DNA of 64,000 nucleotides, from the NCBI GenBank assembly GCA_026394595.1, contig JAPKXX010000045.1, positions 4,024-68,023 on the forward strand, in the 5' to 3' direction. A program made the translations under genes and the position numbers. Below, one piece after another: positions 15,869 to 64,000 of this stretch. The DNA comes from Methanoregula sp. GTDB taxonomy: Archaea > Halobacteriota > Methanomicrobia > Methanomicrobiales > Methanospirillaceae. Each line of letters opens with the position of its first letter. Position 1 is the stretch's first letter. The notes below the pieces were generated by a model that saw only the letters and a program-made list of their open reading frames with translations, was not told the DNA's origin and made no database searches.

Positions 15869-16243
15869 TTATTGTTTTCTCTCTCTCTTCTTATACACTT
15901 TATCGGGATCAAATGCCCGTTCTGAAATGATCGCCCCATCAAGCGTTCGAAAGAAACAACTGGTGTAGCCTGTATGGCAGGCAGCTCCTGTCTGCTCCAC
16001 ATCGTAGATCAGGCAGTCCTCATCGCAGTCCACAAGAATCCGCACAACCCGCTGGAAATGCCCGCTCTCCTCCCCTTTTTTCCAGATCTTGTTCCGGCTC
16101 CTGCTGAAGTAGTGGGCAAATCCTGTTGTTCTTGTGAGATTAACCGCCTGTTCAGTTGCGTACGCGAGCATCAACACATCGCGGCTTTTTGCGTCCTGCA
16201 CGATGACAGGAATCAAACCGTTAACAAATTTCATCGGAATCAT
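15869..16243 (-). CDS. hisI: Phosphoribosyl-AMP cyclohydrolase
   Basis: 124 aa with LIPVIVQD...[18 protein letters not shown]...[26 protein letters not shown], the classic HisI pattern. Confidence 0.9.
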
Positions 16244-16244
16244 T

Positions 16245-17078
16245 TCAAAGACCCATTACCGTTTTCATGATCACAAAGAGGAAGTCTCCCAGAACGACCG
16301 CGCTGATAAGACCGGCAGTGATCGGGATGATAAACGGCACTGCATAGGAAATCCAGACCGTACCAGCCTTCCGGTAGAACGTGAGTTCCTTTTTATAACG
16401 TTCGGGGTAGAGGCGCAAATCCTTGGTGTAGATCCGTTTTTCTCCTGATAACATCCTTCGGAGCGATTCGCGGATTCCTACAAAATTCCGGACCAGCAGA
16501 CCCTCATTTTCGTACATATCCTCCATAACAAACCCGAAGGTCTTCTGGATGCCCGAACCATCTACGGGGAACCCGAAGAACATGTATGGCAGAGGGGCAT
16601 GGTTACCTTTGATGAGATTTTTCATAAAGATCCCGGCAGGAGCAGCAAGGTTGAGGAGTACGGCATTGGTGAGGACCGTAAAGGGGAGGAATCCAAGCGG
16701 GGGGTATCCAAAGTATGGTGTAAGAGGGAAAAAAGGGATACAGGCGGTAATGAAGATCAGTGCCCAGGCATCTGCGCCCCCGAACAGGTTTTTTATGGCA
16801 AACATGTAGAACATCAGAGAAAAAATAGTACAAAGGGCGATATAGCCGGCAACAAGCCCCCATCTGCCGGAAAGACCCATAGTACCATAGAAATATACCG
16901 CTGACGGTAATCCAACAATAAGCATCGGATACCATGTGGGGAATGGCACCCTGCGATCTCTGACATCAAGGTATGAGGCATAGATGAGTGTGACAAACAC
17001 TGCCAGGGCTGAGATGGCCATTGGTATCTGGATCTGATCAGCAAACATCCGTTGAGATAGTGTTGTGTCGGGTACCAC
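16245..17078 (-). CDS. A24-family aspartic prepilin/preflagellin peptidase (FlaK/EppA/TadV-like)
   Basis: Polytopic membrane protein with the two catalytic Asp contexts [10 protein letters not shown] and GGADAWAL, plus a soluble insertion as in archaeal FlaK-type enzymes. Confidence 0.8.
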
Positions 17079-17273
17079 TTATGCATGGCGATGCGGTGGC
17101 AGACAGGTTATCCTATACCATAACCCCGTCTGGACGATTCTCATAATTCTCATACCCGTCTCTTCCCCCCAACAATCCATCCACACATTAATATTATGAC
17201 AGGGTTGAATATTCCGATCAGGAAATGGCCGGGCCTTCCTATCTCTACGCGTTCGGCAGAAGGAAACCGTTAC

Positions 17274-17885
17274 ATGAAGATTCAAGAGCTGCTCGAAAAC
17301 GTTCTCAAAGGGTCAAAATATCTGGGGACATTTGACCTGCTTGCGCTACTCCAGTATGCCAGCACACACGGTGTCCAGGGCATTGCGGTTGCAAAGGGGG
17401 GCGGTTTGGAGTTATACATTGCCCTTCTCAAAGGCGAACCGGAAGGCGCCATTTATGTTGATGAAAAGGGGGTGCTTTTCGGTGACAAGGCTGTGCTCAT
17501 GATCGGGGGAAAAGAGAAGTTTGTCCTTACTGAAATCCCTGCAGATATTGTCGAACCCCTCGTGATGAGCAGCAGGATCTTTGATAAAAACCGGATCAAA
17601 AAGAGCATCACCTGCGCTGTTCCGGAGATTGGACGTACCTGGGGAGGAATCGGCCACCTGACGGTCACTGTGGTAAAAGAGGGAAAACCGCAGAACGGTC
17701 TCCGCGTCTCGATCCGCAAGGATGGAAAGATCGTGGGCAGCGATATTACAACCAATGACGGTGCTGTCGGATTCAAGATTGCGTATGGAAATTATGACTG
17801 TATCCTGCAGGATAAGACACAGGTCGTTACCAAATACCGGATTGAGTTCGATGAATCCCACAATTCTATTAAACTAGGGATCTGA
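17274..17885 (+). CDS. DUF4388-like domain protein with C-terminal Ig/carboxypeptidase-regulatory-like beta domain
   Basis: The start is taken at the ATG at 17274 (MKIQELL). The N-terminal reads GTFDLLALLQYASTHGVQGIAVAKGGG...GAIYVDEKGVLFGDKAV, the pattern I associate with DUF4388. The C-terminal reads GHLTVTVVKEGKPQNGLRVSIRKDGKIVGSDITTNDGAVGF. Confidence 0.5.
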   Translation: MKIQELLENVLKGSKYLGTFDLLALLQYASTHGVQGIAVAKGGGLELYIALLKGEPEGAIYVDEKGVLFGDKAVLMIGGKEKFVLTEIPADIVEPLVMSSRIFDKNRIKKSITCAVPEIGRTWGGIGHLTVTVVKEGKPQNGLRVSIRKDGKIVGSDITTNDGAVGFKIAYGNYDCILQDKTQVVTKYRIEFDESHNSIKLGI

Positions 17886-17990
17886 ATCAACCGGTTCATC
17901 GACAATCCCTGTTCCTGTCATTTATCTGCTTTTTTATCAGACAAAAACAAGACAAAATCCTTTAAATAAAGAACAACAGAGCTATGCCCC

Positions 17991-19118
17991 ATGGATAAAA
18001 AGAAAATCGGGCGTGAGGATTTTGAAGCTTTGCTCAGAGGAGAAAAAGATATAACGCCCTATATCGAGATGGATCCTGCTGCCGGGACCTATTCAGTGTT
18101 CGGAGTAAGGACCGCCAGCAATCCGAATTATCTCGTAAAAGCTATTTATGAAATGTATGAAGTCAACCTGAACAAGAAGCTTGCTGTACAGGCTGTACGC
18201 AAGCTCTTCCGCTCCGTTGGCATGGGATCTGTCGGACTTCAGAACCTGTTAAAGAAATTCGGTATGGATCTCAAGCCGGCTGAATTCCTCATGCTCGTAT
18301 TCAGGCTGCAGCACCAGCAGGGCTGGGGTGCCCCGTTTGAGCTTGTTGAGCAGGGGGAAACAAAGATCGTAATCCGCACGAAACAGACCTTTGAATCCCA
18401 GGTCATGAAAAACTGGAAAATGCCGGTCTGTGGTATCCACCAGGGCTGGATTGAGGGGATCCTGATCACTGTCACGGGCAAGACCTGGTTCTGTCTCGAG
18501 ACTAAATGTCTCGCAAACGGTGATGACTGTTGTGAGTTTGTTGCCGATCAGAGGGAATCCAGCTGGAAGTGGAAGGCAGAGGCAATCGTAAAAGGTGACA
18601 CTGCCATCACTGAATATATCGAGCACAAGCCGTTGGAGGGGACGATCAAGCTTATCGATGATCCAGTCGTCATGATGCCCCGCTTTATCTTTTCCTCAAT
18701 GATGAATTCTTTGAAAAAGACGATGGGAGAGATGCCCGCTGGTGGTGTTAATTACCGTGCGTACATGGATATGGGCAAGGAAAATGTTGAACACTACAAG
18801 AAGATGGGCATCACCAAACCAAACATTCTTGCCGATATGGCGTTTGCTTTCTACTCCCAGATGGGCTGGTTCAGGATCATCAAGATGGAATGGAACGAGG
18901 CCGCCAAGACAAAGACAATAACGCTCGAGCACACCGTAGAATCGGATTCATTTGGTAATACCGGAAAGAATGTCTGTTTCTGTACGGCAGGACTCCTCGC
19001 AGGCATTGTAGAAGGCGCTTTTGGTATCAAAGTACAGGGAAAGGAGATGAAGTGCCGGTCAAAGGGGGATGATCACTGCGTGTTTGTGATCACGAACAAA
19101 CCTGAGAAGGCAGGATGA
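17991..19118 (+). CDS. Double V4R-domain protein
   Basis: 375 aa with two copies of the V4R-type Cys signature near the domain ends (CLANGDDCCEF and CRSKGDDHCVF). Confidence 0.65.
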   Translation: MDKKKIGREDFEALLRGEKDITPYIEMDPAAGTYSVFGVRTASNPNYLVKAIYEMYEVNLNKKLAVQAVRKLFRSVGMGSVGLQNLLKKFGMDLKPAEFLMLVFRLQHQQGWGAPFELVEQGETKIVIRTKQTFESQVMKNWKMPVCGIHQGWIEGILITVTGKTWFCLETKCLANGDDCCEFVADQRESSWKWKAEAIVKGDTAITEYIEHKPLEGTIKLIDDPVVMMPRFIFSSMMNSLKKTMGEMPAGGVNYRAYMDMGKENVEHYKKMGITKPNILADMAFAFYSQMGWFRIIKMEWNEAAKTKTITLEHTVESDSFGNTGKNVCFCTAGLLAGIVEGAFGIKVQGKEMKCRSKGDDHCVFVITNKPEKAG

Positions 19119-19236
19119 CCTCATTGTATCCCTCAGTCCAGTACTCTTCTTTTTATTAGCTTCTTTATCGCCATTGGTAAGAAAATAAATTAAAATTCAT
19201 TGTAATCACGAATAAAAAGGAAAAAAGAGATGGATG

Positions 19237-20022
19237 TTATTTTCTCTTGAAAAGGGCTTTGGAGAACCGATCGATGAATCCTTCTTTCGGGACTGCCACC
19301 TTCTCTTCCTTGTAAGCGACACCGATAATATTGGCGGCGATCCGCTTGAACGCAAGCGTTGCCGGCGATGCGGGAAATTTCACAACAATTGGTGTCTTTG
19401 CCGCCGCCGCCCTTCGGACATTCGTATCCTCCGGGATGATTCCGATCACTTTGACTCCCAACACCTTCTCCATCTTTTTTGTAATGACGTCGACCTTGTC
19501 CTGATCGACACGATTGATGATGGATCCAAGTACCTGCCCCCCGACCACTTCAGTCAAAATCTTGGTCTTGAGGGCATCGACGATCGAAGAAAGCTCTGGG
19601 TTGACAACAAGGATCACTTCGTCTGCCACGGCAAGCGGGACGACTCCGTCTTTGCTGATCCCTGCCGGGGCGTCAATTAACAGAAATTCGCATTGTTTGA
19701 TGATCTCACTCATCACGTCACGGATCCGTTCGGGATCTGCCATCTGGAACCCCTGCAATGAAAGCCCGCTTGGGATGACCTTGAGCCCCGCAGGACCCTC
19801 GTATATCGCTTCTTTGAGGGTTCCTTTGCCGGCAAGAATTTCGTGGAGAGTGACCGGTGCATCCTGAAGACCAAGGAGAAGTCCAACGTTTGCCATGCCG
19901 ATGTCTGCGTCCATGAGAAACGTTTCCTTTCCCATCTGCGAGAGCATCGTGCCAAGATTGACTGCAACGGTGGTTTTCCCAGTACCCCCCTTACCGGAAG
20001 CAATTGTATAAACCTTGACCAT
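19237..20022 (-). CDS. minD: MinD/ParA-family P-loop ATPase
   Basis: 261 aa with the deviant Walker A ASGKGGTGKTT and DADIGMANV. Length and layout match archaeal MinD. Confidence 0.85.
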   Translation of the reverse strand: MVKVYTIASGKGGTGKTTVAVNLGTMLSQMGKETFLMDADIGMANVGLLLGLQDAPVTLHEILAGKGTLKEAIYEGPAGLKVIPSGLSLQGFQMADPERIRDVMSEIIKQCEFLLIDAPAGISKDGVVPLAVADEVILVVNPELSSIVDALKTKILTEVVGGQVLGSIINRVDQDKVDVITKKMEKVLGVKVIGIIPEDTNVRRAAAAKTPIVVKFPASPATLAFKRIAANIIGVAYKEEKVAVPKEGFIDRFSKALFKRK

Positions 20023-20093
20023 TAGGCACCCTTACTACGGAATGATTTTTTTTAAATTTATATAAGATTGATCAATTTACCTTCATAATTCTG

Positions 20094-20711
20094 TTACAAC
20101 CACCATTGTAAAATACCTTTTGTATCTCCCCCGATCTCTTTTTTCCAGTTCTGGGGAAGCTCGTTTTCCGTCCTGATGATACCGATCAGGTGCGATCCTT
20201 TGTGATTAAGTTCGAACAGAGTCACATCCGGGTCATCAGGGGGTGATTCCCTCCCTCTGATCTGACTGAATTTTGCGGCATCTGCCTCAACATCCCGTCC
20301 TGCAGAGGATGCGAAGACAAGTCCGTCATCTGTTGCAATAGTGATCTCGGAAAGCGAATATTTCCGGGCGAGTGCCTGCAGGCTTGCTGTGATATCTTGA
20401 CGGTTTTTGATCAAATCAATTGGGCTAGTTTTTGTTTCCAAATCAGGATCTTTTACAGAAAAAAAGGTATGTGGTTTCGCCTCCTGCTCAGTATGCATTT
20501 CCGGTTGTTGGGGGTATTTCACCCGGGACACAAGTTCAAATATCTCATCTGATTGTGGGGGGTTGTAAGTGATCTCATCCTTTCGTTTTAAAAATTTTAA
20601 TGTATGGTAGAGTGCGAGAAAAAAGATGATCGCGAGGATGACGCACACGAGGACAATGGTTGTAATGTCAGTGATACCAAGAAGATTGATCTCGATAAAA
20701 ACCCCCCCCAT
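20094..20711 (-). CDS. Membrane-anchored protein with Roadblock/LC7-like C-terminal region
   Basis: It has an N-terminal TM helix (ITTIVLVCVILAIIFFLALY). The C-terminal reads ITIATDDGLVFASSAGRDVEADAAKFSQI...LFELNHKGSHLIGIIRT, resembling the Roadblock alpha-beta pattern. It lies in an operon with the flanking genes. Confidence 0.45.
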   Translation of the reverse strand: MGGVFIEINLLGITDITTIVLVCVILAIIFFLALYHTLKFLKRKDEITYNPPQSDEIFELVSRVKYPQQPEMHTEQEAKPHTFFSVKDPDLETKTSPIDLIKNRQDITASLQALARKYSLSEITIATDDGLVFASSAGRDVEADAAKFSQIRGRESPPDDPDVTLFELNHKGSHLIGIIRTENELPQNWKKEIGGDTKGILQWWL

Positions 20712-20717
20712 ATAAAA

Positions 20718-21395
20718 TTATTTCTCGGTCAGATGTTCAAGCTGCAGCTGTTTGAGAATTACTTTGACATCCTTGCGGATCTTCTGTGTTACGTCGTCAA
20801 AGTCCATAGAGTCAATCGAATCGTACTCCTTTTCCGTGGGGGAAGGTTCTACGTCTGGGGCTGTCACCGGTTTTTGAGGGGAGGGAATCGATCCTGATTC
20901 TGGTGAATTGGGTGCTGGCCTTTTTTCAGGTTGAACCGGATGCACCGCACCTGCAAAGGTGAGCGGGGTTGTTTTAATAAATTCCTTCTCCTTCTCAACA
21001 TGAAGTTGGCTGGTGGCAGCTGTCTTCTGCTCAGCCCCATGGTGCATAGCGCCGGTTTTCTGAACCGGGGGGGCCGTGAGACCCCCCGCGTTTTTAACAT
21101 ACGCATTTTTATTGAATTCCAGCGCCAGCTGCAACTGGGTTGCATTAAGATCCGACAATACTGCATCGATTACCTGTTCCTCCCGTGCTCGTGTCTCTGC
21201 CCAACCTCCATCACCATACTGGTCCTGAACCTTTGCAAGGATGCAGGTTCCGCCTTTAAACACCAGCGAACCGCTGATGTCACCTGATGAGAAAGAGCAG
21301 ATACCGGTGAATCTTGTTGTTATAAGCTCACCGATCAAATCCCCCAGTCGGATACCTTTCCTGATAGAGCGAAACGTGCCTCTCGGGAGCTCCAT
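20718..21395 (-). CDS. DUF4388-like domain protein with Pro/Glu-rich linker
   Basis: The N-terminal reads LGDLIGELITTRFTGICSFSSGDISGSLVFKGGTCILAKV. The middle is low-complexity (PAPNSPESGSIPSPQKPVTAPDVEPSP). Confidence 0.5.
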   Translation of the reverse strand: MELPRGTFRSIRKGIRLGDLIGELITTRFTGICSFSSGDISGSLVFKGGTCILAKVQDQYGDGGWAETRAREEQVIDAVLSDLNATQLQLALEFNKNAYVKNAGGLTAPPVQKTGAMHHGAEQKTAATSQLHVEKEKEFIKTTPLTFAGAVHPVQPEKRPAPNSPESGSIPSPQKPVTAPDVEPSPTEKEYDSIDSMDFDDVTQKIRKDVKVILKQLQLEHLTEK

Positions 21396-52697: not shown

Positions 52698-52924
52698 TTT
52701 TGTATCAGCTCTCTTCAGCCGCAGTGGATAATAAATTATGTGATATAATCACACCAGAACAACCAACAAAATAGTTACAATAGGAGTTGGGAGAGGTCAT
52801 ATTTGAACCAGACAGATTCCTAACGCAATTACTATCAGCGAGGTGATCCCGTCCATAATCATTATCGGTTTTTTAGATTCCCGTTATAACCTATCTTTGG
52901 TTTGGATTCGGATTCTCCCAACAA

Positions 52925-52941
52925 CAGTACTTCCGAAAGTA
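52925..52941 (+). repeat. 17-nt element end CAGTACTTCCGAAAGTA (left copy)
   Basis: It has an exact inverted match at 55255-55271. Its first 13 nt also match the tips at 55277 and 63811. Confidence 0.8.
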
Positions 52942-53089
52942 GACTAATCGGTGACTATTGTGGCTTTCTAAAAAAATATATCTTGTGATATACGATATTC
53001 TCAATCTATAGGATAGGTGATGATAATGGGACTTCGATTAATAATAAAAACAAAAAACAAGGTTCAACAGACCGGATTAATGAAGATAT

Positions 53090-53887
53090 TTGATGTGGTT
53101 TGGGATTGGGGATCGGAACGATCCGATGGTTGTCGGGACAAAACCACAAAAAGGAACAACCTGGGCGTTTAGATTTGCGACACTGATGATTATCGAAGAC
53201 AATTGCCGGTTGACAATCAAAGCGATACCGGTTAGTGAAATCACTTCGAAAACTGATGTTGTCGCCGAACTTTTGAACTATGCGAAGGAAAGGATCAAGA
53301 TTGGGGTTGTCTGTATTGATCGCGGGTTCTATTCAGTCGAAGTTCTCTCGACTGTAGAAGGAATGGGCCTGAAGTACCTAATACCTGCTGTCAATACTCC
53401 TAAAATTAAATGGATAACACGAGCAAAAGAGCCCCCTCAGATTATTCCATATACAATGGGATCTAAAGAGAGACAGATCTCAACCAAACTTGTGATCATT
53501 CTCGATAAGAATATGGAAAAGAGGAATTTTGTTACTAATCTGGATATAGACAGAATGCATACCCGAAAGTTGAATGAGATATACAGCAAGCGGTGGGGGA
53601 TTGAAGCAAGCTATCGGGTAAAGAAGGATTTCCGATCAAAAACCACGTCTAAAAACTATATTATTAGGCTGTTCTATTTCCTTCTCTCCGTTTGTCTCTA
53701 TAATCTCTGGGAGATAGTGAATATCATCTTAGCAGTATTAGACCAGGTTGGATCCAAAATACCCATTATCACGGCCAAATTGTTTGGGACAATATTATTC
53801 CGTGTCTTTGAGTTGAGCGGGATAGGGCCACCACCTGATACCGCGCCTAAAAAATGTGAGGATATTCAAACGACCCTCAATTTATAA
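53090..53887 (+). pseudogene. 5'-truncated DDE transposase (same family as 56609-57826)
   Basis: It aligns by eye with residues ~155-405 of the full-length copy (GDRNDPMVVGTKPQ..., YSKRWGIEASYR, ...IQTTLNL) and lacks the N-terminal ~150 aa. A degenerate copy of the 59-nt IR appears to follow the stop (~53889-53919). Confidence 0.8.
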
Positions 53888-53919
53888 TTGAATCTGAAGC
53901 ATCAGGGAATCGGCGGGTT

Positions 53920-54147
53920 GACCTCGGTGAAGAAACCGTAGATTCTATTTTGCTTTATGCTTGTAACAAACCGATTTTTGTTATTGACGCATACACAAAA
54001 AGAATTTTTTCGCGGTATGGATTTTTTGAAGAAAAAGCAAAATACCGAGAAATTCAAAATTTTTTTATGAGTCATCTTCCAAAGGATGCGATTTTATATA
54101 ACGATTTTCATGCACAAATTGTTCATCTAGGAAATGCGATTTGTAAA
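53920..54147 (+). pseudogene. Endonuclease III-related (HhH-GPD, COG2231-like) gene remnant
   Basis: It reads DLGEETVDSILLYACNKPIFVIDAYTKRIFSRYG...[17 protein letters not shown]. This matches the HhH/GIGxETADSILLYA...VDxYTxR...HGKxxC region. It lacks both the N-terminal half and the C-terminal Cys cluster. Confidence 0.55.
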
Positions 54148-55125
54148 TTGGGGCATCATCCCACGGACTTCTTTCCCGACTTCCTCAATAAGGTGTTCTT
54201 CATCGGCTTTGGTTAGTGCGGTGAAAACAGGACGGTTGACCATATTCTCAAGCATCCATTCCCGGGCAAACTTGCCGGATTGGATCTCTGCGAGAATTTC
54301 CTGCATCGCCTCATAGGCTTCCGGTCCGATGACGCGGGGGCCCCGGGTGAGGTCGCCATACTGTGCCGTATTGCTGATAGACTGGCGCATGTTGGTGAGC
54401 CCGCCTTCGTATATAAGGTCGACGATTAACTTCAGCTCGTGAAGTACCTCAAGGTATGCCATCTCCGGTTCGTACCCGGCATCGACAAGCGTCTCAAAAC
54501 CCGCCTTCACAAGAGATGTGCAGCCACCGCAGAGGACTGCCTGTTCGCCGAAGAGGTCCGTCTCGGTCTCTTCGCGGAATGAGGTCTCAAGTACGACCGC
54601 ACGGGTCGCCCCGATTGCTTTTGCATACGCAAGCGCAATTTTGTGGGCATTCCCGGTATAATCCTGATGGATTGCAATAAGTGCGGGCACTCCCTTGCCT
54701 TCTTCATACTGGCGGCGGACCATAGAACCGGGTCCCTTAGGTGCGACCATGATAACGTCAACGGTTGGCGGAGGTACGATCTGGCCAAAGTGTATGTTGA
54801 ACCCGTGGGAGAACATAAGGCACTTCTTGTCCGAGAGATGGGGCATGATCTCGCTCTTGTAAACTGCTGCCTGATGTTCATCAGGAAGGAGGATCTGGAT
54901 AATATCAGCCTTTTTTACTGCCTCGGCAACCGCCATCACCTTCATACCGTCTTTGACCGCTGCGTCCCAGCTCTTCCCCGGCCGGAGACCGATCACCACA
55001 TTAAGCCCGCTGTCCTTAAGGTTAAGAGACTGCCCGCGCCCCTGTGAGCCATAGCCGATCACAGCTATGCGCTTCTCCTTCAGCACCGAGAGATCCGCAT
55101 CTGCTTCATAATATTTTTTTAACAT
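54127..55125 (-). CDS. ilvC: Ketol-acid reductoisomerase (class I)
   Basis: 332 aa with [18 protein letters not shown] and the full KARI knotted domain. Composition is core-like and GC-rich, in contrast to its AT-rich flanks. Confidence 0.95.
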
Positions 55126-55254
55126 GGTGTATCACTTGATATTCATTTTAGAGAGTACATAAATAGGATAGTCGAATTGGTTCGTTTACACAAATTGTAA
55201 ATTTTTTTGACAACTGCAATTGCAATACCCCAAAATAATTTTATCGAATGATAT

Positions 55255-55271
55255 TACTTTCGGAAGTACTG
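55255..55271 (-). repeat. 17-nt element end CAGTACTTCCGAAAGTA (right, inverted copy)
   Basis: It is the exact reverse complement of 52925-52941. Confidence 0.8.
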
Positions 55272-55289
55272 GACAACAGTACTTCCGAA
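55259..55289. repeat. Perfect 13-5-13 palindrome formed by two element tips head-to-head
   Basis: TTCGGAAGTACTG-GACAA-CAGTACTTCCGAA. Confidence 0.9.
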
Positions 55290-55330
55290 TATCTCGTCAG
55301 ACGACGGGATTGCATTTTTTACGGATCTTG
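55277..55330 (+). repeat. Outer terminal inverted repeat, left
   Basis: CAGTACTTCCGAATATCTCGTCAGACGACG-8 nt-TTTTTTACGGATCTTG. Its partner is at 63758-63811. Patchy similarity continues inward, including ATGGCGGGACTTT at 55365-55377. Confidence 0.85.
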
Positions 55331-55528
55331 AGCGTGGAAAATTGTTCCGATACGGTTCTGTTGCATGGCGGGACTTTGAAGCCCTAAACAAAAAGGATTG
55401 TGATACTTTTGCGGTTCTTTGATTCAAAATGGAAAACTGATGTGTGGCAATTGGTGGCTGGTGGAACTAAGAAAATATATATCCTCATAAAAAATATTGC
55501 TGTAAAAAGAGCAAGTAGTTGTAACAAT

Positions 55529-56023
55529 ATGGCTGAGCTGGTGGAACTCAGTTCATTTATCAATTTCTTACATAAAGAAATTGAATTTAATTTCAATTTG
55601 AATAGTTTTGACTGTAGATTTCGATTGCAAAAATTTGTTTTTTTAGCCAAATTTTTCGGATGGCATAATGATTATTCTTATGGTATTTATTTGAGGGGGC
55701 CATATTCGCAAGACTTGGCTGCTCATTATTATTCTTTCAAAAAAATTGACATTAGATCCGTCCCCACAATCGAATTGACTACATTCGATAAAAAGGCTTT
55801 TCTTAATCTAATTAGGAATAAAGAGGATTTATGGCTTGAAGCAGCTGCAACAATCATATCAATGATGGATAGTTATAAGGTCCATTATAAGGGAGATGAT
55901 TTAAAAACCAAAGTCTTGGAGCGAGTGATTGATTTAAAAGACGAGATTCCAAGATCTGTTATAAATACGGTATACCAAGATTTATCAAGTGCGGGAATTT
56001 TTTCAAATATTGTAAAAGCATGA
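55529..56023 (+). CDS. Panacea/DUF4065-like (SocA/GepA-type) putative antitoxin
   Basis: The start is taken at the ATG at 55529. The sequence FRLQKFVFLAKFFGWHNDYSYGIYLRGPYSQDLAAHYY resembles the KLQKLLY...GP(Y/V)S core of DUF4065. It overlaps the next gene by 4 nt (ATGA). Confidence 0.5.
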   Translation: MAELVELSSFINFLHKEIEFNFNLNSFDCRFRLQKFVFLAKFFGWHNDYSYGIYLRGPYSQDLAAHYYSFKKIDIRSVPTIELTTFDKKAFLNLIRNKEDLWLEAAATIISMMDSYKVHYKGDDLKTKVLERVIDLKDEIPRSVINTVYQDLSSAGIFSNIVKA

Positions 56024-56526
56024 GAGATCCACCTCGGCATGTTCATATTGACACTCAATATCTATATGCATATGTAGTCTCCCGTGGTCATGATGAAGAA
56101 TCTGAAAGGAAAAAACAGATACAAGAGTTGATCCATAATAAAAACCCAAATGTGAAGGCAATAATCTCATTTACAGCCGTTGGAGAAACCTTTAACGAAA
56201 TAAATGAAAAAATTACGCATCCAAGAGAGCGAAGACGGGCGATAAACGAATTTATTGATTTATTATCTGAAAAAAGAGTTGATTTGAAACCGGCTAATGA
56301 ATCGACATTTAAAATAGCTCATAAGATAAAAAAAGAAGACCCACGATTAGACGATACTGATATTTTGATAGTTTCACAAGCAATATGTGATAAACTGGCA
56401 TATTTGGTGTTGTTTCAAGATAGTAAAATCATAGAATCAGAGGTAATAAAAGATTATTGCGTAAATAGAACAAATAAGGATGGTTATGAGTGTGTTTTAA
56501 AAATTAAAGAAAATTATTCTCGATAA
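56020..56526 (+). CDS. PIN-like nuclease-domain protein (putative toxin)
   Basis: The acidic residues are spaced as in PIN domains: HIDTQYL, AVGETF, LDDTDILIVSQAI, LFQDSKI. Confidence 0.5.
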   Translation: MRDPPRHVHIDTQYLYAYVVSRGHDEESERKKQIQELIHNKNPNVKAIISFTAVGETFNEINEKITHPRERRRAINEFIDLLSEKRVDLKPANESTFKIAHKIKKEDPRLDDTDILIVSQAICDKLAYLVLFQDSKIIESEVIKDYCVNRTNKDGYECVLKIKENYSR

Positions 56527-56585
56527 TTATTTTATAGCCGCCAATCCGATCATCGTTTCCCATCAGATTGATCGGGATGTTTGCC
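56527..56585 (+). repeat. Inner 59-nt inverted repeat, left copy
   Basis: It matches the reverse complement of 61154-61212 at 54 of 59 positions, with a 39-nt perfect core at 56540-56578. It contains an internal hairpin CCGATCA...TGATCGG. Confidence 0.9.
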
Positions 56586-56608
56586 GAAATGCGCGCATGA
56601 GGATTCGG

Positions 56609-57826
56609 TTACAAATTGAGAGTTGTTTGTATAGCCCTCCGTTTTTTAGGAACTCTATTATGAGGTGGAGGGCCCGTTCCTATTATTTCAAACACATGGA
56701 ATAGCGCCTTTCCAAACAACAGAGCCGTGATGAAAGGTACTTTCTTAACAACCTGCTCTGATTTGGACAGAATGATATTGACCAATTCCCATAAGTTGTA
56801 AAGACAGACGCTGAAAAAGAAATAAAATAGTCGTATAATGTAATTTTTCGACGTTGTTTTTGGTCTGAACCCATTTATAACCCTATAAGACGTCTCTATC
56901 CCCCATCTCTTTTTGTATAATTGTGGAATACGATGAGCTGAGAGACGAGATACATTTAAATTCGTAATAAAAGCTATCTTTTTACCGTCTTTATCATACG
57001 TGATAACAACGTTGGTGAGGATATTTTTTTCTGTGGTTCCTATACGATAATTATTAATGATTTTTGGTGCTTCGTGTTGCCGAAGTAATTTTTTAATTCT
57101 TGGATTGAGAGTGGCAGGCATTATGTAATGAATATCCATATTATTTAACATCGAAATGACATCAATTGAGAAAAAACCTCGGTCAAGATATACATTGTTG
57201 ATGTTGATCCTGGCTTTCGCATAACTCACTAATTCGTGTACGATTTCTTTTCTTGATATGACTCCATCAACAGGAACCGTTTTGATAGTTAATCTGCAAT
57301 CTTCATCTACTATAGTCAAAGTGGCAAATCTGTATGCTTTAGATGTCCCTCGCTGTGGTTTGGTTCCGACAACCATCGGATCATTTCGATCTCCATAGTA
57401 AAGTTGGTCGGTTGCATCGACTGCAATATCAACTTTACCTCTTAAGAATCCATTCTTCTTTGCTATTGTGATGATTTCATCAATAGCTGATTCGAATCCT
57501 GATATGAGCTCTTGGGGTTCAAATTTTTTCAAATGATACAGGAGTGTGTCAGCATTTGGACAGCCGTTACGCGAATCAATGATTAGGCTCTGTGAACTCC
57601 CCTCCGCGAAATAATTATGAATTCCTGTATACGTTAGCAATTTCAAATAATCATTTTGGGTATATTTGCGCGTATAGGGAATTTTGAGTTTAATATTTGG
57701 CAGCAGAACCTTTTTCGTAAGTTGCCATATTTTTCCTGTCCAACGGCTCCGCTTATTGCTAATAGATTTATTACTTTTAACGCCTTGATCCTTTACTGCG
57801 GAGTTGGTTGCTTTCACAGGTACCAC
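56609..57826 (-). CDS. DDE transposase (IS4/IS5-superfamily type, possibly ISH3-like)
   Basis: 405 aa with AVDATD, YLDRGF and YKKRWGIETSYRVINGFRPK (the Y-R-E-K-type signature). The start is GTG. A paralogous truncated copy is at 53090-53887. Confidence 0.85.
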   Translation of the reverse strand: MVPVKATNSAVKDQGVKSNKSISNKRSRWTGKIWQLTKKVLLPNIKLKIPYTRKYTQNDYLKLLTYTGIHNYFAEGSSQSLIIDSRNGCPNADTLLYHLKKFEPQELISGFESAIDEIITIAKKNGFLRGKVDIAVDATDQLYYGDRNDPMVVGTKPQRGTSKAYRFATLTIVDEDCRLTIKTVPVDGVISRKEIVHELVSYAKARININNVYLDRGFFSIDVISMLNNMDIHYIMPATLNPRIKKLLRQHEAPKIINNYRIGTTEKNILTNVVITYDKDGKKIAFITNLNVSRLSAHRIPQLYKKRWGIETSYRVINGFRPKTTSKNYIIRLFYFFFSVCLYNLWELVNIILSKSEQVVKKVPFITALLFGKALFHVFEIIGTGPPPHNRVPKKRRAIQTTLNL

Positions 57827-58010
57827 TCTTGCACAGGAGGGCGACTTTCGACGGCTGTCCTCCTGTTTTACTTCTATTTGAGTTATAAGTATTTAGACGG
57901 TGTTATACACTTATCACCTTATACACATACACACATAAAGTATTTATTTATTGTGGTTAAGGGGAAAACCATATAAAGCGAGGAGAGCATTATAATATTT
58001 GAGGACAAGT

Positions 58011-58223
58011 ATGGGTAGAATCGATGTTATCCTTCCAGATGACCTTGAAGAAGAGTTCAGAATGGAGGTCGCCAAAGAACTGGGAATGAGAAGAGGTAAC
58101 CTGACCATAGCGTTACACGAAGCGATCAAATTATGGATAGAAACACATCAACAGAGAAGAAGCGAGATCGCAAAAAAAGCATGGGCAACAAGAAAGGAGA
58201 AAAGGGGGGAAGACAATCTTTAA
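58011..58223 (+). CDS. Ribbon-helix-helix (CopG/Arc-like) DNA-binding protein
   Basis: The ATG is at 58011. The product starts MGRIDVILPDDLEEEFRMEVAKELGMRRGNLTIALHEAIKLW, which fits a beta-strand - helix - helix layout. Confidence 0.6.
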   Translation: MGRIDVILPDDLEEEFRMEVAKELGMRRGNLTIALHEAIKLWIETHQQRRSEIAKKAWATRKEKRGEDNL

Positions 58224-58326
58224 AGAATAATTAATATTAATCACAAAAGTTTTTATTTTCACCCTGCGAGCGACAGATCAATATACAATCAACTTCATAT
58301 ACTTTTTTAAATTGGAGAGATGCTAA

Positions 58327-59097
58327 ATGCAAAGTTGCCAGGTATTTTTGAAAGAAAACCGGCCTAAAATATCAATAATATACGAACCGCGAGGAAAAGC
58401 AAGAGAATATTGTGAATTAGCAGCAAATCTCTACCGGGGATGCAGCCATCGCTGCACTTATTGTTACGCTCCTGCAACCCTATATATGTCAAGAGAAGAA
58501 TTTTGCAGACCGAGTGTTAGAATAGATGTCATAAATAAATTTGAAAAGGATGCTACTATATTAGAGAGAATTGGTGAAAAGCGTCCGATTTTATTATCCT
58601 TCACTACTGATCCCTATCAACCGCTTGATATCAAGGAACAACTCACAAGAAAAGCGATTCAAATATTACATAGACATGGATTAAAGGTTTCAATTCTAAC
58701 GAAAGGCGGCAGACGTTCAGAAAGAGATTTTGATCTGCTATCGAAACATCCAGAATTGAGTGAATACGGGGCCACTTTGGTTTTTACTGATGAAAAGTAT
58801 AGAAAAGAGATTGAGAGCGGGGCAGCACCAACAAAAGAGAGGATAGATTCAATTAAGAAAGCGCATGATATGGGGATTTTTACTGATGTATCGCTTGAAC
58901 CTGTATGGATACCTGAACAAAGCCTTGAATTAATCGATTTAACAAAAGATTTTGTTGATTTTTATAAAGTTGGGAAATTAAATTATGATATTCAGGAGAA
59001 AACAATCAATTGGAAGGAATTTAAGAATGATGTTATTAAAAAACTAAAAGATTATGGAAAGAAATATTATATCAAAAAAGATCTACAAAACTATTGA
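58327..59097 (+). CDS. Radical SAM protein, SplB/COG1533 (DNA-photolyase-like) type
   Basis: It has CSHRCTYCY (CxxxCxxC) at residues ~39-47, then SFTTDPYQPLDIKEQLTRKAIQIL and ILTKG, as in the SplB-like rSAM group. GGAGAG lies upstream. Confidence 0.8.
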   Translation: MQSCQVFLKENRPKISIIYEPRGKAREYCELAANLYRGCSHRCTYCYAPATLYMSREEFCRPSVRIDVINKFEKDATILERIGEKRPILLSFTTDPYQPLDIKEQLTRKAIQILHRHGLKVSILTKGGRRSERDFDLLSKHPELSEYGATLVFTDEKYRKEIESGAAPTKERIDSIKKAHDMGIFTDVSLEPVWIPEQSLELIDLTKDFVDFYKVGKLNYDIQEKTINWKEFKNDVIKKLKDYGKKYYIKKDLQNY

Positions 59098-59117
59098 AAA
59101 ACTTGTAAGATACATTT

Positions 59118-60214
59118 ATGCCACTTCCGACTATTTGGTCTATTGAACCCCATACAGAAGCTAAACACAGAATTCTGGAAGAATATTTAAAAGCATGGTT
59201 CCCTATCCTATCGAGATTTCATAAACGAATCTTATATATTGACGGTTTTGCCGGTCCAGGGGTATACGAAGAAGGTGAAATTGGTTCACCGATAATTGCT
59301 CTTCAATGTTTGTTAGAACATAAGCATAAGTTATACCAAAGATCCGTAGAATTTAATTTTTTTTTATTGAGAAGGACAGGGAAAGAGCTGAGATACTTGA
59401 TCGAACTATAAAAGAAAGATTTCCTGATTTGCCAAAAAATGTTCAATATGGTGTTTATCCTGCCGATTTTGAAGCAGCTATGAGTGATATATTAGATAAC
59501 CTCGATAAAGAAAAAAAGCGTCTTGCTCCCACATTTGCATTTATCGATCCATTTGGGTATAGCGGATTGCCATTTTATTTAATACGGAAAATTCTCTCAT
59601 TCCCTCATTGCGAAGTTTTCATAAATTTTGCTTATAGTTCAATCAATCGATTTATAGATACTGAAGATAGTAGAACAGAAATTTTTGACAGTTTATTTGA
59701 AACATCCAAATGGCGTAAGATTAGGGAGATAAATGATCCGACAGAGCGAAACCGACAATTAGTTTCACTTTATACTGTTCAGTTGAAAACTGCTTCGAGA
59801 TATGTCAGATCGTTTGAAATGGAAGATAATGTCGGTAGAATCTCATACTATCTTTTCTTTGCTACAAATCACGTCAAGGGATTCGTAGAGATGAAAAGCG
59901 CGATGTGGCGGGTAGATTCAAGAGGTTCATTCCGTTTTGCTGATACAACAGATACCGATCAAAGATTTTTGTTAGACTTTGATAAAACCTCCTGATACCA
60001 AAATCAAGCCGAATTTCTTTATCAGCATTTTGCCGGAGATACCGTAACAGGAAAAACCGTGATGGATTTTTGTGAAGAAGATACAGGATTCCCGACCCGT
60101 TGGTCTAAAAGTTTAAAAATTTTAGAGACTTCCCAACAAATAACTGTGACAAATAGAGAGAGAAGAGGGATTTATCCCCCCGGATGTGAGATCACATTTA
60201 AAAGGCTTAATTAA
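59118..60214 (+). pseudogene. tcmP: TcmP-like (three-Cys-motif partner protein family) gene, disrupted by a poly-T frameshift and an in-frame TGA
   Basis: The N-terminal reads WSIEPHTEAKHRILEEYLKAW...LYIDGFAGPGVY. The frame shifts in the T9 run at 59357-59365. It continues FFFIEKDRERAEILDRTIKERFPDLPKNV...FAFIDPFGY to the TGA at 59993-59995. The same frame then stays open (YQNQAEFLYQHFAG...CEITFKRLN) to the TAA at 60212-60214. Confidence 0.6.
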
Positions 60215-60624
60215 AAGAGAATAATCGACATTCTTACAGATATCCCTTGTATTACGGAGATGATTGATTATAGGAATTGTAAAAAGAGGTCTTAAAAATG
60301 AAATGCGAATACTGTGACAAAGAAATGGATGCCAATGACCCAAATTATGCTAAAAGTAACATTCACTACGATTGTGCAACCAAGCTTTTTTTTAAAATTC
60401 TATATCAGAAAGTTACGTAACTTTCTATAGTAAGATGAATATACAGGGGGCATAGAATTCTGCTATAGAAATCTCAAAACTTACCTTCTGCACACATTTA
60501 ACCTATTAAAAATATCAGAAGCGCATTACCAACCACGTGCTAGCGTAATTAACCGTAGACGAATCAGAAACCGAATTAGAATAATAATAAATATTGCATT
60601 ATCTTAGTTCTTCTCGATGTAGTT

Positions 60625-61065
60625 ATGCCAAAGGTCCAAAGTAATTTAGTTGAGAAATGTCTGCGGGATTTGTTGAGAGAGAGAGATTATAAAATGAATG
60701 AGATCCGCGGTAATGGAGAGACGGGAGTGGATATTGAGGCGAGAAAGGGTGATAATGTCTTTCATATTGAGGTGATTAGTTATAAGAAGAAAGGTCCGGC
60801 GAGATCTAAAGATTTTTTCCAGGTTTTTTTCAGAGCCATTTCACGATTAAATGATGGTGCTACCCATTGTGTCATTGCATTACCACTCGAATTTGAAACA
60901 GGATTGCCAAAAAGAGTCAAACAATATAAAATTGCTTGGGAAAGAATTGGTAATGTTTTTCCAGAATTGGAAATATGGTTAGTTGATCCTGAAAGTAAAA
61001 AGTGTAAACGTACCAAATGGATAGAGTGGCTTGATACCCTAGTCCAAGGTCTGGTAGTATCATAG
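60625..61065 (+). CDS. Small PD-(D/E)XK nuclease-fold-like protein (putative)
   Basis: 146 aa. The sequence GETGVDIEARKGDNVFHIEVISYKKKG fits a D...E-x-K-type core as in Hjc/Mrr-like nucleases. It is convergent with the methyltransferase. Confidence 0.4.
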   Translation: MPKVQSNLVEKCLRDLLRERDYKMNEIRGNGETGVDIEARKGDNVFHIEVISYKKKGPARSKDFFQVFFRAISRLNDGATHCVIALPLEFETGLPKRVKQYKIAWERIGNVFPELEIWLVDPESKKCKRTKWIEWLDTLVQGLVVS

Positions 61066-61153
61066 GTCTGACGGTTGCAGCGGCGGGTTTGTTTACTGCG
61101 GGTGGATGTGCCCGGTGTGCGGGATGATGCAAAAGGATTAATCCCGCACAGAT

Positions 61154-61212
61154 GGCAATTATCCCGATCAATCTGATGGGAAACGATGATCGGATTGGCA
61201 TCAATAAAATAA
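61154..61212 (-). repeat. Inner 59-nt inverted repeat, right copy
   Basis: It is the reverse complement of 56527-56585 (54 of 59). It lies 3 nt beyond the methyltransferase stop codon. An adjacent GC hairpin GCGGGAT/ATCCCGC is at 61119-61147. Confidence 0.9.
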
Positions 61213-61215
61213 ATT

Positions 61216-62769
61216 TTAAATTTGTAATTCCGCTTGTTTCTCTAATTTCATTTGTTCTAATAATAGAGATAATTTATTAAAATCAGATATTTTTGGTTTC
61301 TTCCGACCATGCATCTGAGTAAAAAACTTATCGAGATCCTTATAGTATATGAACTTCCATCCATATTGATGAATTTCATCACTAAACTTACGCTCTCGAA
61401 GTTTACGATTTAAGAGTGGTTTTCGTTCTTCTGGTATGATAATAATACGATTCAGACCATCAACATTGAGATTAGATCCGCGATCTATTGCCTCACTAAT
61501 ACCTGTTGTATTTTCAACTTCAAACTCATATTTTGGTTGACCATTTTTGAGCCAGATTGCATCAATTTCCTTAACTCGATCTGGATTATCACAATCAAAA
61601 GGTAATGATTTTACACGTCTCCCTGTTATATCAGCAATTACATCAAATCCAAATTTTTCTCCTATTTGAGCAATATAATCAACCATTATATCGTGTTGAC
61701 TGATCCTGATAGATACTGATTGTTTAAGTTTCCACTTTTTATCATCTGTTTTTTCAGCGTAATCGTTTAAAACTTCTTGAATTGTTGTTGTTTCTGGGGT
61801 TAAAGCATTGGGAAAATGAATGTAAACCTCTTGGAGGATTTCATCAAAACCTAGCTGGATCTCACGATTAAGTGCATTAATAACAACTTTTTCAACACGT
61901 TCTTTTAACGGGACTCTATCAATATACGGTACAATTGCTGGATCAGCAAACCACAATTTTTCGTCAACAATTACAAACTCTTTTCCAATATGTTTATTCA
62001 AAACGTCATCTATCGATTGTGATGCCGAAAAGAGAAAACCCTCTTGCTTAAGCCGGTCGTAAATATCTGAGTAACTATTGACAATTAACGAGTATTCTGT
62101 TGGTTGCCCCCTCTCAGCAATTATCCTTTTTATAGTCTCTACAACAACTCGTTCAAATGTAACTATGTCGGGTTGTTTTATTTTAGATGTGTCACGGGGT
62201 TGTGAGGGTTTTTTAAATCTTATATAATAATCACCAAAAGCACTACCATAAGGTGCGAGTTGTGATTTTGGGGACTTGCGAGCTGGGGGTTGATAAATAA
62301 TTTTTTCCAAATCAAAACCAGCTAAAATGCATGCTCGAATTATATCATTATATATTTCCATTTTCGCGTTGTTGAAAGTAATCGTTAGGTATTTTGAAGG
62401 TTTCAATACCCGATAGATTTCACGAAATGCTTTTGCTAGGAGTGTATAATATGTTTTATTATTCTTATCCTTCCGAACTGGACTATCACTAATACATATC
62501 TCTTCATCAAAGTCTGGTTTAAAACCCAACCAAGATGCCCACATATAATTAAGTTCAAGATATGGAACATTATCACCATAGGGAGGATCAGTAAATACGT
62601 AATCTATACTATTCTCTTTTAATTCTGGTATTGAATTTAAGTCGGTAGCAGAATGTGTATAGATTTTAAAATTATTATCTGAATATTTTGAAGAAAGAAG
62701 TTTATTTGATTCTTCTTTCCCTTTTACCAATTTCTCAAATTTATTTCTAAAAAAACGCCAAACATTCAT
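61216..62769 (-). CDS. DNA methyltransferase, C-terminal ORF (motif IV DPPY plus large C-terminal region)
   Basis: It contains IDYVFTDPPYGDNVPY. The C-terminal ~130 aa (EIDAIWLKNGQPKYEFEVENTT) look nuclease-fold-like. It is in the same frame as 62776-63573, separated only by TGA-TAT-GAA. Confidence 0.75.
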   Translation of the reverse strand: MNVWRFFRNKFEKLVKGKEESNKLLSSKYSDNNFKIYTHSATDLNSIPELKENSIDYVFTDPPYGDNVPYLELNYMWASWLGFKPDFDEEICISDSPVRKDKNNKTYYTLLAKAFREIYRVLKPSKYLTITFNNAKMEIYNDIIRACILAGFDLEKIIYQPPARKSPKSQLAPYGSAFGDYYIRFKKPSQPRDTSKIKQPDIVTFERVVVETIKRIIAERGQPTEYSLIVNSYSDIYDRLKQEGFLFSASQSIDDVLNKHIGKEFVIVDEKLWFADPAIVPYIDRVPLKERVEKVVINALNREIQLGFDEILQEVYIHFPNALTPETTTIQEVLNDYAEKTDDKKWKLKQSVSIRISQHDIMVDYIAQIGEKFGFDVIADITGRRVKSLPFDCDNPDRVKEIDAIWLKNGQPKYEFEVENTTGISEAIDRGSNLNVDGLNRIIIIPEERKPLLNRKLRERKFSDEIHQYGWKFIYYKDLDKFFTQMHGRKKPKISDFNKLSLLLEQMKLEKQAELQI

Positions 62770-62775
62770 TTCATA

Positions 62776-63573
62776 TCAATTGGGAGGAATCCAATAACCT
62801 CTTACTTTCCAACCCGGACCTTGCCCTGGAGTATAAACAAGCAATTTGGAAGCTTGGGGAAGCGCAGCAGAAAAAGCGAATTTCATCATATTGCGGATAT
62901 CTGTATCGTGAATTTTGTTGATTCTATTGAACAGAATTGAGAGTGCTATAAGATTTCGCTTGCTGAAAAGATCAGATACTTTTGTACCTTTTGCGATGTT
63001 TACTCTAGTATTCCAAATTAGCTCGTTTTTGGGATACCAATAAGGTATTTTCTTTTTTTCAATATCAGTAATTTTTTTTATGTCTGTGGTTGTTAAATCC
63101 TTGATACCTTTATCCTTACAATTTCCATTTTCACATTCATAGGCAATCTTATTGGGTTTGTTATTCGAATATGTGATATAATAAATTATAGCATCATTGC
63201 GACATTTTGGGCAAGAGGTTTTAAAATAACTTAAAATTTCATCTTTTACATCGGTCTCAATTTTTGTAAATTCTTTTTTCAAACTGGTGATACTTATAGG
63301 CAACGCAGTTAAAGATGCAATAAAGTTTCCAACCTGATCAAGATCAACACCAATTGCTTTGCGTCCCAATCCGAGAGCTTCAATCGCTGTTACACCTGAT
63401 CCAGAAAACGGGTCAAGGACGATATCACCCTTTTTGGAATAATGTTCGATATATGTTGCAACAACATTGTCTGGTTTTCTAGCCCAATATTTGTGAATAT
63501 TATACATTGGAGGATGAAGGCGAGCAACCAATGCATGATTAATATGTGAGATTGATTCACTTTTCGCTTTCAT
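62776..63573 (-). CDS. DNA methyltransferase, N-terminal ORF (SAM motif I plus zinc ribbon)
   Basis: It contains KYWARKP...VLDPFSGSGVTAIEA (FxGxG) and CPKC...CENGNC. It ends at the TGA at 62776-62778, in frame with the downstream ORF. Confidence 0.75.
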   Translation of the reverse strand: MKAKSESISHINHALVARLHPPMYNIHKYWARKPDNVVATYIEHYSKKGDIVLDPFSGSGVTAIEALGLGRKAIGVDLDQVGNFIASLTALPISITSLKKEFTKIETDVKDEILSYFKTSCPKCRNDAIIYYITYSNNKPNKIAYECENGNCKDKGIKDLTTTDIKKITDIEKKKIPYWYPKNELIWNTRVNIAKGTKVSDLFSKRNLIALSILFNRINKIHDTDIRNMMKFAFSAALPQASKLLVYTPGQGPGWKVRGYWIPPN

Positions 63574-63757
63574 TCAAAATCACTTGTCCTTTTGATGTAT
63601 TTACAACATTATAAATGAAAAACCAACCGATTTAAAACTTGAAAAGTCCCGCCATTTATCAGCGCGATCAAAATAGCGCGAAGTCCCGCGAAGTTATCAG
63701 AACCCAAAAAGGGGAGAATTAAATAAGTGGAAGATTCACCCCCATCCGCCACTATAC

Positions 63758-63811
63758 CAAGATCCGTAAAAAACACAGGTTCGTCGTCTGACGAGATATT
63801 CGGAGGTACTG
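63758..63811 (-). repeat. Outer terminal inverted repeat, right
   Basis: It is the reverse complement of 55277-55330 with 7 mismatches. Two GCGGGACTT-type subterminal motifs lie at 63643-63655 and 63681-63690. Confidence 0.85.
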
Positions 63812-64000
63812 GACAAATACCTTCTTGACGGTATAAACTGCCGGCAGGTGTATAGTAGCGATACCGACTCTCTCAGATGGATCCCGGAACTTATTGCTCA
63901 TCATCGGGGGAACATTCCGTCGGCATTTCTATCAGATAAGATATTAATTGCCGATAATTTCGGCAATAAACTATTATAGATTTTTTTTCATGTAATTTTA

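Follow-up and report, generated by a model that had tools for sequence, protein, structure and literature searches.

A probable cargo-carrying ISH3-family transposon inserted at the end of an older transposon in Methanoregula

The 64,000-nucleotide stretch of a Methanoregula sp. contig analysed here (JAPKXX010000045.1, positions 4,024 to 68,023; hereafter the window, with coordinates counted from its first letter) contains two adjoining mobile units. The larger and younger of them, an 8,535-bp element at 55277-63811 (unit 2), is probably a cargo-carrying transposon of the ISH3 family of insertion sequences (ISs), equipped with its own transposase and recently inserted into the Methanoregula chromosome at the end of an older and decayed relative (unit 1, 2,347 bp, 52925-55271). 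Unit 2 belongs to this known IS family by four defining features, and differs from it in its size, in its number of open reading frames (ORFs) and in its end-directed insertion. The order along the locus is AACAA, unit 1 (52925-55271), GACAA, unit 2 (55277-63811), GACAA. The host is a Methanoregula, thus an archaeon, as judged from the homologs of its ilvC gene, whose product is 88-95% identical to Methanoregula proteins, and relatives of the transposase are also present in Methanoregulaceae.

Unit 2 is bounded by terminal inverted repeats of 54 nt (55277-55330 on the forward strand and, aligned with it, 63758-63811 on the reverse strand) that are 87% complementary (47/54); the left tip reads CAGTACTTCCGAATATCTCGTCAGACGACG and its CAGT fits the CRGT signature of ISH3 elements. 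The 22-nt tip occurs at only two sites in the window, which are the two element ends (0.00 expected from shuffled sequences), and the pentamer GACAA lies immediately outside both tips (55272-55276 and 63812-63816). An initial annotation made from the letters alone had placed the inverted tips, the pentamers and the subterminal motifs discussed below, and all its coordinates are correct. The direct repeat it had given as 5 bp is nevertheless 18 bp long (TTCGGA(A/G)GTACTGGACAA at 55259-55276 and 63799-63816): at the left junction, the 13 bp that precede GACAA form the terminus of the neighbouring transposon, and because this terminus has the common tip sequence, a 13-5-13 palindrome results. Unit 2 holds about 10 ORFs, and its GC content is 35.4%, versus 51.1% in the rest of the window. 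An Rfam search of the window returned one tRNA and nothing inside unit 2. A genome-contig collection without the window's own genome, scanned for the 20-nt type-B tip (the end type of unit 2, defined below), gave one chance match only, inside a 539-aa ORF (comM-like, by eye only) of an Ignavibacteriales metagenome-assembled genome (MAG), and two scans of viral contigs gave no junction, their five tip matches being chance occurrences in coding sequence of two virus groups.

The insertions themselves can be read from metagenome contigs, in which the locus occurs in three allelic states. The window matches two freshwater-sediment runs (X1 and X2), and both units are present in X1, X2 and the window alike. 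A contig of a peat run (X3) covers 55150-55276 without mismatch and then passes directly to ATACCTTCTTGACGG, the sequence found from 63817 onward: it carries unit 1 and a single GACAA, lacks unit 2, and skips 8,540 bp. A contig of a groundwater run (X5) joins 52920 to 63813 and carries neither unit, the site reading ...CTCCC-AACAA-ATACC, and the 10,892 bp that it skips equal 2,347 + 5 + 8,535 + 5. Because each step between these states (no unit, unit 1 only, both units) adds a 5-bp duplication, both units are true transposon insertions. The insertions were serial: unit 1 entered first, duplicating AACAA, the right copy of which now reads GACAA, and unit 2 later entered and duplicated this right copy, so that the left GACAA serves both as the left duplication of unit 2 and as the right-hand duplication copy of unit 1. 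The transposon with a 5-bp target duplication proposed in the initial annotation is therefore borne out by the empty-site contigs of X3 and X5. An empty GACAA site, which that annotation had suggested looking for, exists in the sister population X3, the flanks are polymorphic for the insertion, and comparable duplications (TTTGC, ATTCC, TGGCC, TCTGA) surround relatives of the element.

The assignment to ISH3 relies on the transposase and on the ends. The transposase gene of unit 2 (56609-57826, reverse strand) is full length and encodes a 405-aa DDE enzyme matched by NCBIfam transpos_ISH3 (NF033541) and Pfam DDE_Tnp_1. The NCBIfam ISH3 model is matched at 168.9 bits (E=1.4e-49) and the next family, IS4, at 44 bits, a lead of more than 120 bits. 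The enzyme harbors at aa 304 the motif Y-(2)-R-(3)-E-(3)-R (YKKRWGIETSYR), which in ISH3 stands in place of YREK (De Palmenaer et al. 2008, PMC2266710), and the transposase remnant of unit 1 has a motif of the same type (YSKRWGIEASYR). ISH3 elements have CRGT termini, generate duplications of 4-5 bp ('typically five bps'), and are confined to archaea (PMC2266710). Likewise, CAGT is found at both outer ends of unit 2 and at all of the 20+ family ends collected, the pentamer GACAA is single in the empty site, and the host is archaeal, as indicated by the Methanoregula ilvC and the Methanoregulaceae relatives of the transposase. With their CAGT start and 5-bp duplication, the outer ends fit the ISH3 transposase located between them, which would bind these ends and excise or copy the whole unit, the 3' ends of which would be joined to target strands 5 bp apart.

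Unit 2 thus has in common with ISH3/ISH27-type ISs (PMC2266710) a DDE transposase, the Y-(2)-R-(3)-E-(3)-R motif, CRGT ends, a 5-bp duplication and an archaeal host. In contrast, ISH3 ISs are 1.2-1.5 kb long (1,225-1,500 bp) with a single ORF, while unit 2 has 8,535 bp, approximately nine passenger genes and 54-nt inverted repeats, so that it is a cargo-carrying derivative and not a simple IS. Unlike a plain ISH3 IS, it also carries a conserved companion module (a small DNA-binding-like protein, a radical SAM protein (rSAM) and the three-Cys-motif partner protein TcmP), has inserted against a resident family end, and encodes a transposase scoring below the curated NCBIfam cut-off. Tn7-like, Tn3-family and Mu-like elements were also considered and rejected, as the sole transposase match is DDE_Tnp_1/ISH3 and the tips read CAGTAC, not TGT...ACA or GGGG...

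Relatives were obtained by fetching contigs that encode transposase relatives and mapping the 13-mer tip in them (L002 is the same sequence as L012, and L009 the same contig as L011). They range from 1.3 to 12.9 kb: a 12.9-kb element in L009 (1975-14860, flanked by TTTGC on both sides), one of 8.2 kb in L019 (647-8827, ATTCC on both sides), one of 4.8 kb in L021 (7419-12197, flanking repeat (A)TCTGA), a 3.2-kb type-A unit in L002 that is distinct from the clade-B element of that contig (12408-15632, TGGCC on both sides), and simple 1.3-kb ISs with 13-mer tips in L010 (1327-2705) and L013 (893-2235). The terminal 13-mer CAGTACTTCCGAA is identical in all ends, and three end types are distinguished by what follows these common 13 nt: ...GAAAGTAA in type A, ...GAATATC, GAATATG or GAATGTA in type B, and ...GAACATC in type C. 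Transposase clades follow the same division. Clade B, composed of the window enzyme and of two relatives that are 88-90% identical to it and cover 99-100% of it (P0001 and P0002), has an internal identity of 87-90% and does not exceed 56% with the rest; it accompanies type-B ends, whereas clade A (67-90% identical) accompanies type-A ends in 7/7 cases. The type-B end of L002 (12376-12402) is homologous to the left end of unit 2 over about 30 nt, both conserving CGTCTGRCG..ATATTCGGAAGTACTG beyond position 13, a clade-specific sequence, and a homologous type-B end starts at 8833 in L019. The cargo of these relatives includes type IIG/ISP restriction-modification enzymes as well as HEPN, Ymh, HD and DprA-like genes.

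Several side observations concern these relatives and populations. In abundant peat and sediment populations (X8, X9 and X10), 52718 is joined to 63799 with 183 unaligned letters in between, and these populations may or may not hold a solo end. A wetland contig (X6), compared with window 63727-63840, holds the right end of a related copy, with 6 differences in 54 nt; its flank, GGTAATACCAACCATCTCGGTATAAATCTG, looks like a diverged version of the right flank of the window, and it is possible that a more distant relative carries the element at the orthologous site. A 9,918-nt contig of another population (X4) joins a type-A to a type-B end, differing at 8 positions over 55255-55321, and encodes at a distance of 7.4 kb a clade-B transposase whose relative orientation is opposite. 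It probably represents one more independent type-B element, with a cargo of its own. The 4.8-kb member of L021 lies in a region (12200-21170) where a DUF5906 primase-helicase-like protein and an NrS1-like polymerase are encoded, surroundings that look like a provirus or a plasmid and would offer the transposon a route between cells.

Does the transposase belong to the outer ends or to a second transposon nested between them? The initial annotation had favored the second possibility, in which the outer 8.5 kb are a non-autonomous shell resembling a miniature inverted-repeat transposable element (MITE) and move in trans, and the transposase is part of a 4.7-kb inner transposon at 56527-61212 with repeats of its own. 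This reading is unlikely, though it survives better than any other rival. A 59-nt sequence (56527-56585, 24 bp 3' of the transposase stop, with the dyad CCGATCA...TGATCGG) recurs in inverted orientation at 61136-61212, and the pair, 92% identical, brackets the transposase, the small DNA-binding-like protein, the rSAM, TcmP and an Mrr-like ORF, the inner segment filling precisely the interval between the stop codons of two convergent outer genes. The module of small protein and rSAM is moreover much more conserved (74-80% and 67-80% identical, respectively) than the transposases of the elements concerned (51-55%), an evident mosaicism which shows that elements exchange modules. However, the 59-nt sequences contain no CRGT and their boundaries at 56527 and 61212 show no direct repeat, though CRGT tips and 5-bp duplications both characterize ISH3 elements; L009 (10637-10695) and L021 (11242-11289) each have a single copy of the 59-nt sequence, immediately 3' of the transposase and in a version 11 nt longer; L002 encodes an 88%-identical transposase 1.17 kb from its homologous type-B end, and no 59-nt repeat exists in this locus; and the transposase clade tracks the outer end type.

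The internal transposase is for these reasons most likely cognate to the outer type-B ends. The inner pair would then not be a transposon boundary, but a conserved 3' sequence of the transposase gene, whose second copy is a relic of recombination among family members: conservation reaches about 90% over approximately 60 nt (TGGCAAAYATCCCGATCAATCT...GATGATCGGATTGGC, including the internal 7-bp dyad) just 3' of transposase genes whose proteins are only 53-55% identical, and 61136-61180 is 93% identical to L021 11223-11268, so that the second copy is probably a remnant of the 3' region of another family member, duplicated, it may be, through mosaic recombination. A structured strand or RNA was considered for it and rejected: in single-strand folding the sequence is no better than its shuffles (z=+0.37), and the fold predicted from the alignment keeps the dyad, with a compensatory change in 1/14 predicted pairs only. 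Contrary to what had been suggested, the hallmarks of ISH3 are thus found at the outer ends and not at the inner repeats, and the outer unit does not seem to lack a transposase of its own, as same-clade enzymes (87-90% identical) accompany the same end type.

A second possibility, and a less probable one, is that unit 2 was moved by clade-A transposases acting on the common tip, its own enzyme being irrelevant or inactive. The 13-mer shared by type A, B and C ends would allow it, and family copies are numerous in these communities. The transposase of unit 2 is, however, full length with an intact catalytic motif, past position 13 the window and L002 share a conserved sequence specific to their clade, and the only other family transposase of the window is truncated.

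It is very improbable that a site-specific recombinase made the insertion by a crossover inside an 18-bp attL/attR identity (TTCGGARGTACTGGACAA). Such a repeat does exist with one mismatch, and this scheme predicts joined ends in the form of a long palindrome centred on a 5-bp spacer, but domain searches of ORFs of at least 85 aa found no integrase, serine recombinase or Xer-like ORF in unit 2, related elements occupy unrelated sites with different 5-bp repeats, and the target of unit 1 lacks the 13-mer, the 13 bp being the terminus of the neighbouring transposon; this candidate was rejected on the absence of a recombinase, the variable spacers and the unit 1 target. An assembly artefact, namely a chimeric MAG contig in which low-GC foreign DNA was joined to Methanoregula DNA at the repeated 13-mer, has a negligible probability despite the metagenomic source, the sharp GC shift and the repeat at the junction, given that independent Logan contigs of two runs (X1 and X2) cover the left junction without mismatch, with an even depth of 6-8x over flank and element, and that the duplication arithmetic is exact in two independent empty-site contigs (8,540 and 10,892 bp).

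Several points nevertheless weigh against an autonomous ISH3-family transposon. The 168.9 bits of the transposase are below the curated NCBIfam ISH3 cut-off of 225, clade-B transposases are rare in databases (three clusters), and unit 2 is the only type-B element seen with both ends: the left end of the L002 type-B element was not found within 12.4 kb, and no second complete type-B element was obtained. The 13-mer is the same whatever the end type, which leaves some probability to a mobilisation in trans by another family transposase, the two inverted 59-nt copies (92% identical) indeed stand on either side of the transposase, and an allele lacking 56527-61212, sought in eight runs, was found in none. 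Finally, all the evidence comes from metagenome assemblies, and two cargo genes are broken, so that this copy may be decaying.

The position of unit 2 relative to unit 1 is repeated elsewhere. At four independent loci, exactly 5 bp separate a type-B end from a type-A end (GACAA in the window, TGGCC in L002, TTTGC in L009 and ATTCC in L019), and in each of them this spacer is the own duplication of the type-A neighbour, with one mismatch in the window (AACAA versus GACAA). In the window, the X3 contig gives the order of events: the type-A end and GACAA were resident, and the type-B element came later. The resident terminus, TACTTTCGGAAGTACTG (55255-55271, reverse strand), is present in this empty-site contig and is the end of unit 1 on the 3' side of its transposase; 5/5 junctions involve the type-A end located 3' of the transposase gene of its element, although an orientation specificity of end-targeting is only suggested by this number. 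In L010 and L013, the 5-bp spacer TCACT separates the type-C end of one 1.3-kb IS from the type-A end of another, the transposases being 45% identical to each other and about 30% identical to that of the window; the outer pentamers mismatch (CAGGC, TCACT, GGGCT), a pattern that is suggestive only and would fit either inverted-repeat (IR) targeting or dimer-like junctions without duplication.

A chance landing at one phosphodiester bond of a genome of a few Mb, four or five times independently, is not credible, which suggests that type-B insertion is targeted to a resident type-A end. The resident end would direct target choice, either through a bound transposase or by the tip itself, placing the adjoining 5 bp in the target site. 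As the insertion adjoins a resident terminal repeat, this is reminiscent of the IR-targeting of IS30 and the targeted transposition of IS911 (PMC9333248), where the new copy also adjoins a resident terminal repeat and creates an IR-IR junction with a spacer of the duplication length of the family. These elements, however, use a copy-out-paste-in mechanism with 2-4 bp spacers and target their own ends (PMC9333248), whereas here the spacer is 5 bp and the partners are two sub-lineages (type B or C against type A). On a broader scale, we tentatively propose, with somewhat less than even confidence, an undescribed autonomous ISH3-derived lineage in Methanoregula and its relatives, from 1.3 to at least 13 kb in size and carrying defence or housekeeping genes, in which B/C ends home to the transposase-3' terminus of type-A elements and insert into its 5-bp duplication.

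A survey published in 2019 stated that no cargo-carrying DNA transposon had yet been seen in archaea (PMC6563490), and no description of cargo-carrying ISH3 transposons was found in the literature searched. Archaea are thought to hold simple ISs and not the passenger transposons of bacterial style, a view from which the ISH3-type family described here departs: in methanogens, elements of this type seem to move restriction-modification, toxin-like and candidate defence genes, and once ilvC, and would provide these organisms with a concrete means of exchanging defence genes. Landing 5 bp from a resident end is a testable rule of target choice that could explain how mobile-element or defence islands grow, and it hints at the chemistry of ISH3 transposition. 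If the homing of the B/C lineage to type-A ends is true, arrays of defence genes could be built end to end, and these elements would be the first clear cargo-carrying DDE transposons in archaea, with an IR-targeting mechanism in an IS4-related family.

Unit 1, the resident transposon, is a patchwork. Its perfect 17-nt type-A inverted repeats pair 52925-52941 with 55255-55271, the left one providing a fourth copy of the 13-mer tip at 52925, and its flanks are AACAA and GACAA. Its transposase (53090-53887) is truncated by the loss of about 140 N-terminal residues, and has its best match with the NCBIfam ISH3 model (E=4.5e-39), below the curated cut-off. A fragment of an endonuclease III-like gene (53905-54216, recognized by eye from its translation) begins about 25 bp after the transposase stop, indicating that the original 3' end of this IS was deleted. 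Unit 1 also contains an intact and host-like ilvC (54127-55125, 53.6% GC), for which an exact look-up gave no record because its start codon differs. In other Methanoregula genomes, the neighbours of ilvC are a GTP cyclohydrolase gene on one side and a Na/sulfate-symporter gene on the other, without any tip in the vicinity, which points to the capture of a housekeeping gene by an archaeal transposon. Captures of the ISEcp1 / IS1380 type similarly combine a 5-bp duplication with a host gene inside the mobile unit, but use a surrogate end, while unit 1 has perfect 17-nt inverted repeats. At the DNA level, unit 1 and the region proposed to be nested in unit 2 are similar in the transposase coding sequence only. 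The ancestral target of unit 1 (52900-52924, ATTCGGATTCTCCCAACAA), devoid of the 13-mer, has ATTCGGA and ACAA at the same spacing as in the element end ATTCGGAGGTACTGGACAA, a likeness that may be fortuitous or may faintly indicate a resemblance between targets and ends.

The motifs found inside the ends of unit 2 were initially taken as part of multi-site ends. All three sites of GCGGGACTT are indeed present (55368 on the forward strand, 63644 and 63681 on the reverse strand; 0.48 expected, and no shuffle reached three). On the left, the motif TGTTGCATGGCGGGACTTTG and a degenerate second unit TGTGATACTTTTGCGGTTCTTTG (55358-55440, forward strand) precede the first inward-reading ORF, and on the right a pair of CTGATAA-N5-CGGGACTT motifs 37 bp apart (63643-63690, reverse strand) precedes the methyltransferase gene. 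The notion of multi-site ends is doubtful, however, as L002 and L009 have such motifs at a distance of 1.1 to 2.3 kb from element ends: L009 has the same pair with the same spacing (12487 and 12524), 2.3 kb from its element end, and L002 has a single motif 3' of the transposase (11307). L019 has two, 350-380 bp inside its type-B end (9182-9218). Both motif sets of the window precede inward-reading genes, and a role as regulator or operator sites of the type-B lineage seems more likely for them than one as transposase sites. Iteron-like arrays of the form TGATAA-N4-6-CGG(G/T)... also recur in type-B-related sequence (window, L009 12487-12600, L019 and L002), and those of L009 adjoin a degenerate tip-like sequence, GTGTACGCGC, inside the type-A element, a combination that suggests the buried remnant of a type-B end.

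The passenger genes of unit 2, most of them defence-like, would ride along with its transposase, and two of them are already broken. At the left end, a 207-aa ORF (55400-56023, forward strand) overlaps by 4 bp a 168-aa ORF (56020-56526, forward strand), and the two are a possible toxin-antitoxin-like pair. They had been labelled Panacea-like and PIN: the first label finds no confirmation, the 207-aa ORF being without match in Pfam (even at E<=10), NCBIfam or PADLOC (best PDB match E=0.21), and the second is reduced to a sub-threshold match to PF01850 (E=2e-4, 22.4 bits for a gathering score of 23.6). Divergently from the transposase gene, a small DNA-binding-like protein (MGRIDVILPDDLEEEF..., 58011-58223, forward strand; ribbon-helix-helix by eye only, no Pfam match) may be a regulator; it is 74-80% identical to proteins at the same position in L009 and L004, and is replaced by a DUF2080 protein in L019 and L021. 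It is followed on the same strand by the rSAM (58327-59097), which resembles SplB and 'radical SAM mobile pair' proteins (Pfam Radical_SAM 1.2e-16, all NCBIfam rSAM matches sub-threshold) and is 67-80% identical to those of L004 and L009, and by a frameshifted TcmP (59118-59995), both halves of which match TIGR04474, with a PADLOC match to the candidate defence profile PDC-M30A (1e-34). The rSAM and TcmP would form a candidate defence pair. TcmP is split at a T9 run (59357-59365) where one extra T restores a 292-aa ORF, a break that may reflect genuine inactivation, phase variation or a fault of the assembly.

Further along, a 146-aa ORF (60625-61065, forward strand) has a weak match to the restriction endonuclease-like Mrr_cat domain (PF04471, E=4.8e-4, 20.7 versus 21 bits). 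In its passenger genes, unit 2 resembles the bacterial transporter ISs (tIS) and the Tn3-family elements with toxin-antitoxin cargo (PMC7157771), in which one transposase and one pair of ends also move unrelated passengers, but differs from them by its transposase family, its lack of a resolvase or res site, and its archaeal host. The large methyltransferase that had been noted in unit 2 is an N6/N4 DNA methyltransferase of about 785 aa (61216-63573, reverse strand; Pfam N6_N4_Mtase), interrupted by an in-frame TGA (62776-62778) that may be a nonsense mutation or be read through, and its two halves (ORFs of 265 and 517 aa) match one PADLOC MTase_II profile, at positions 1-217 and 243-430.

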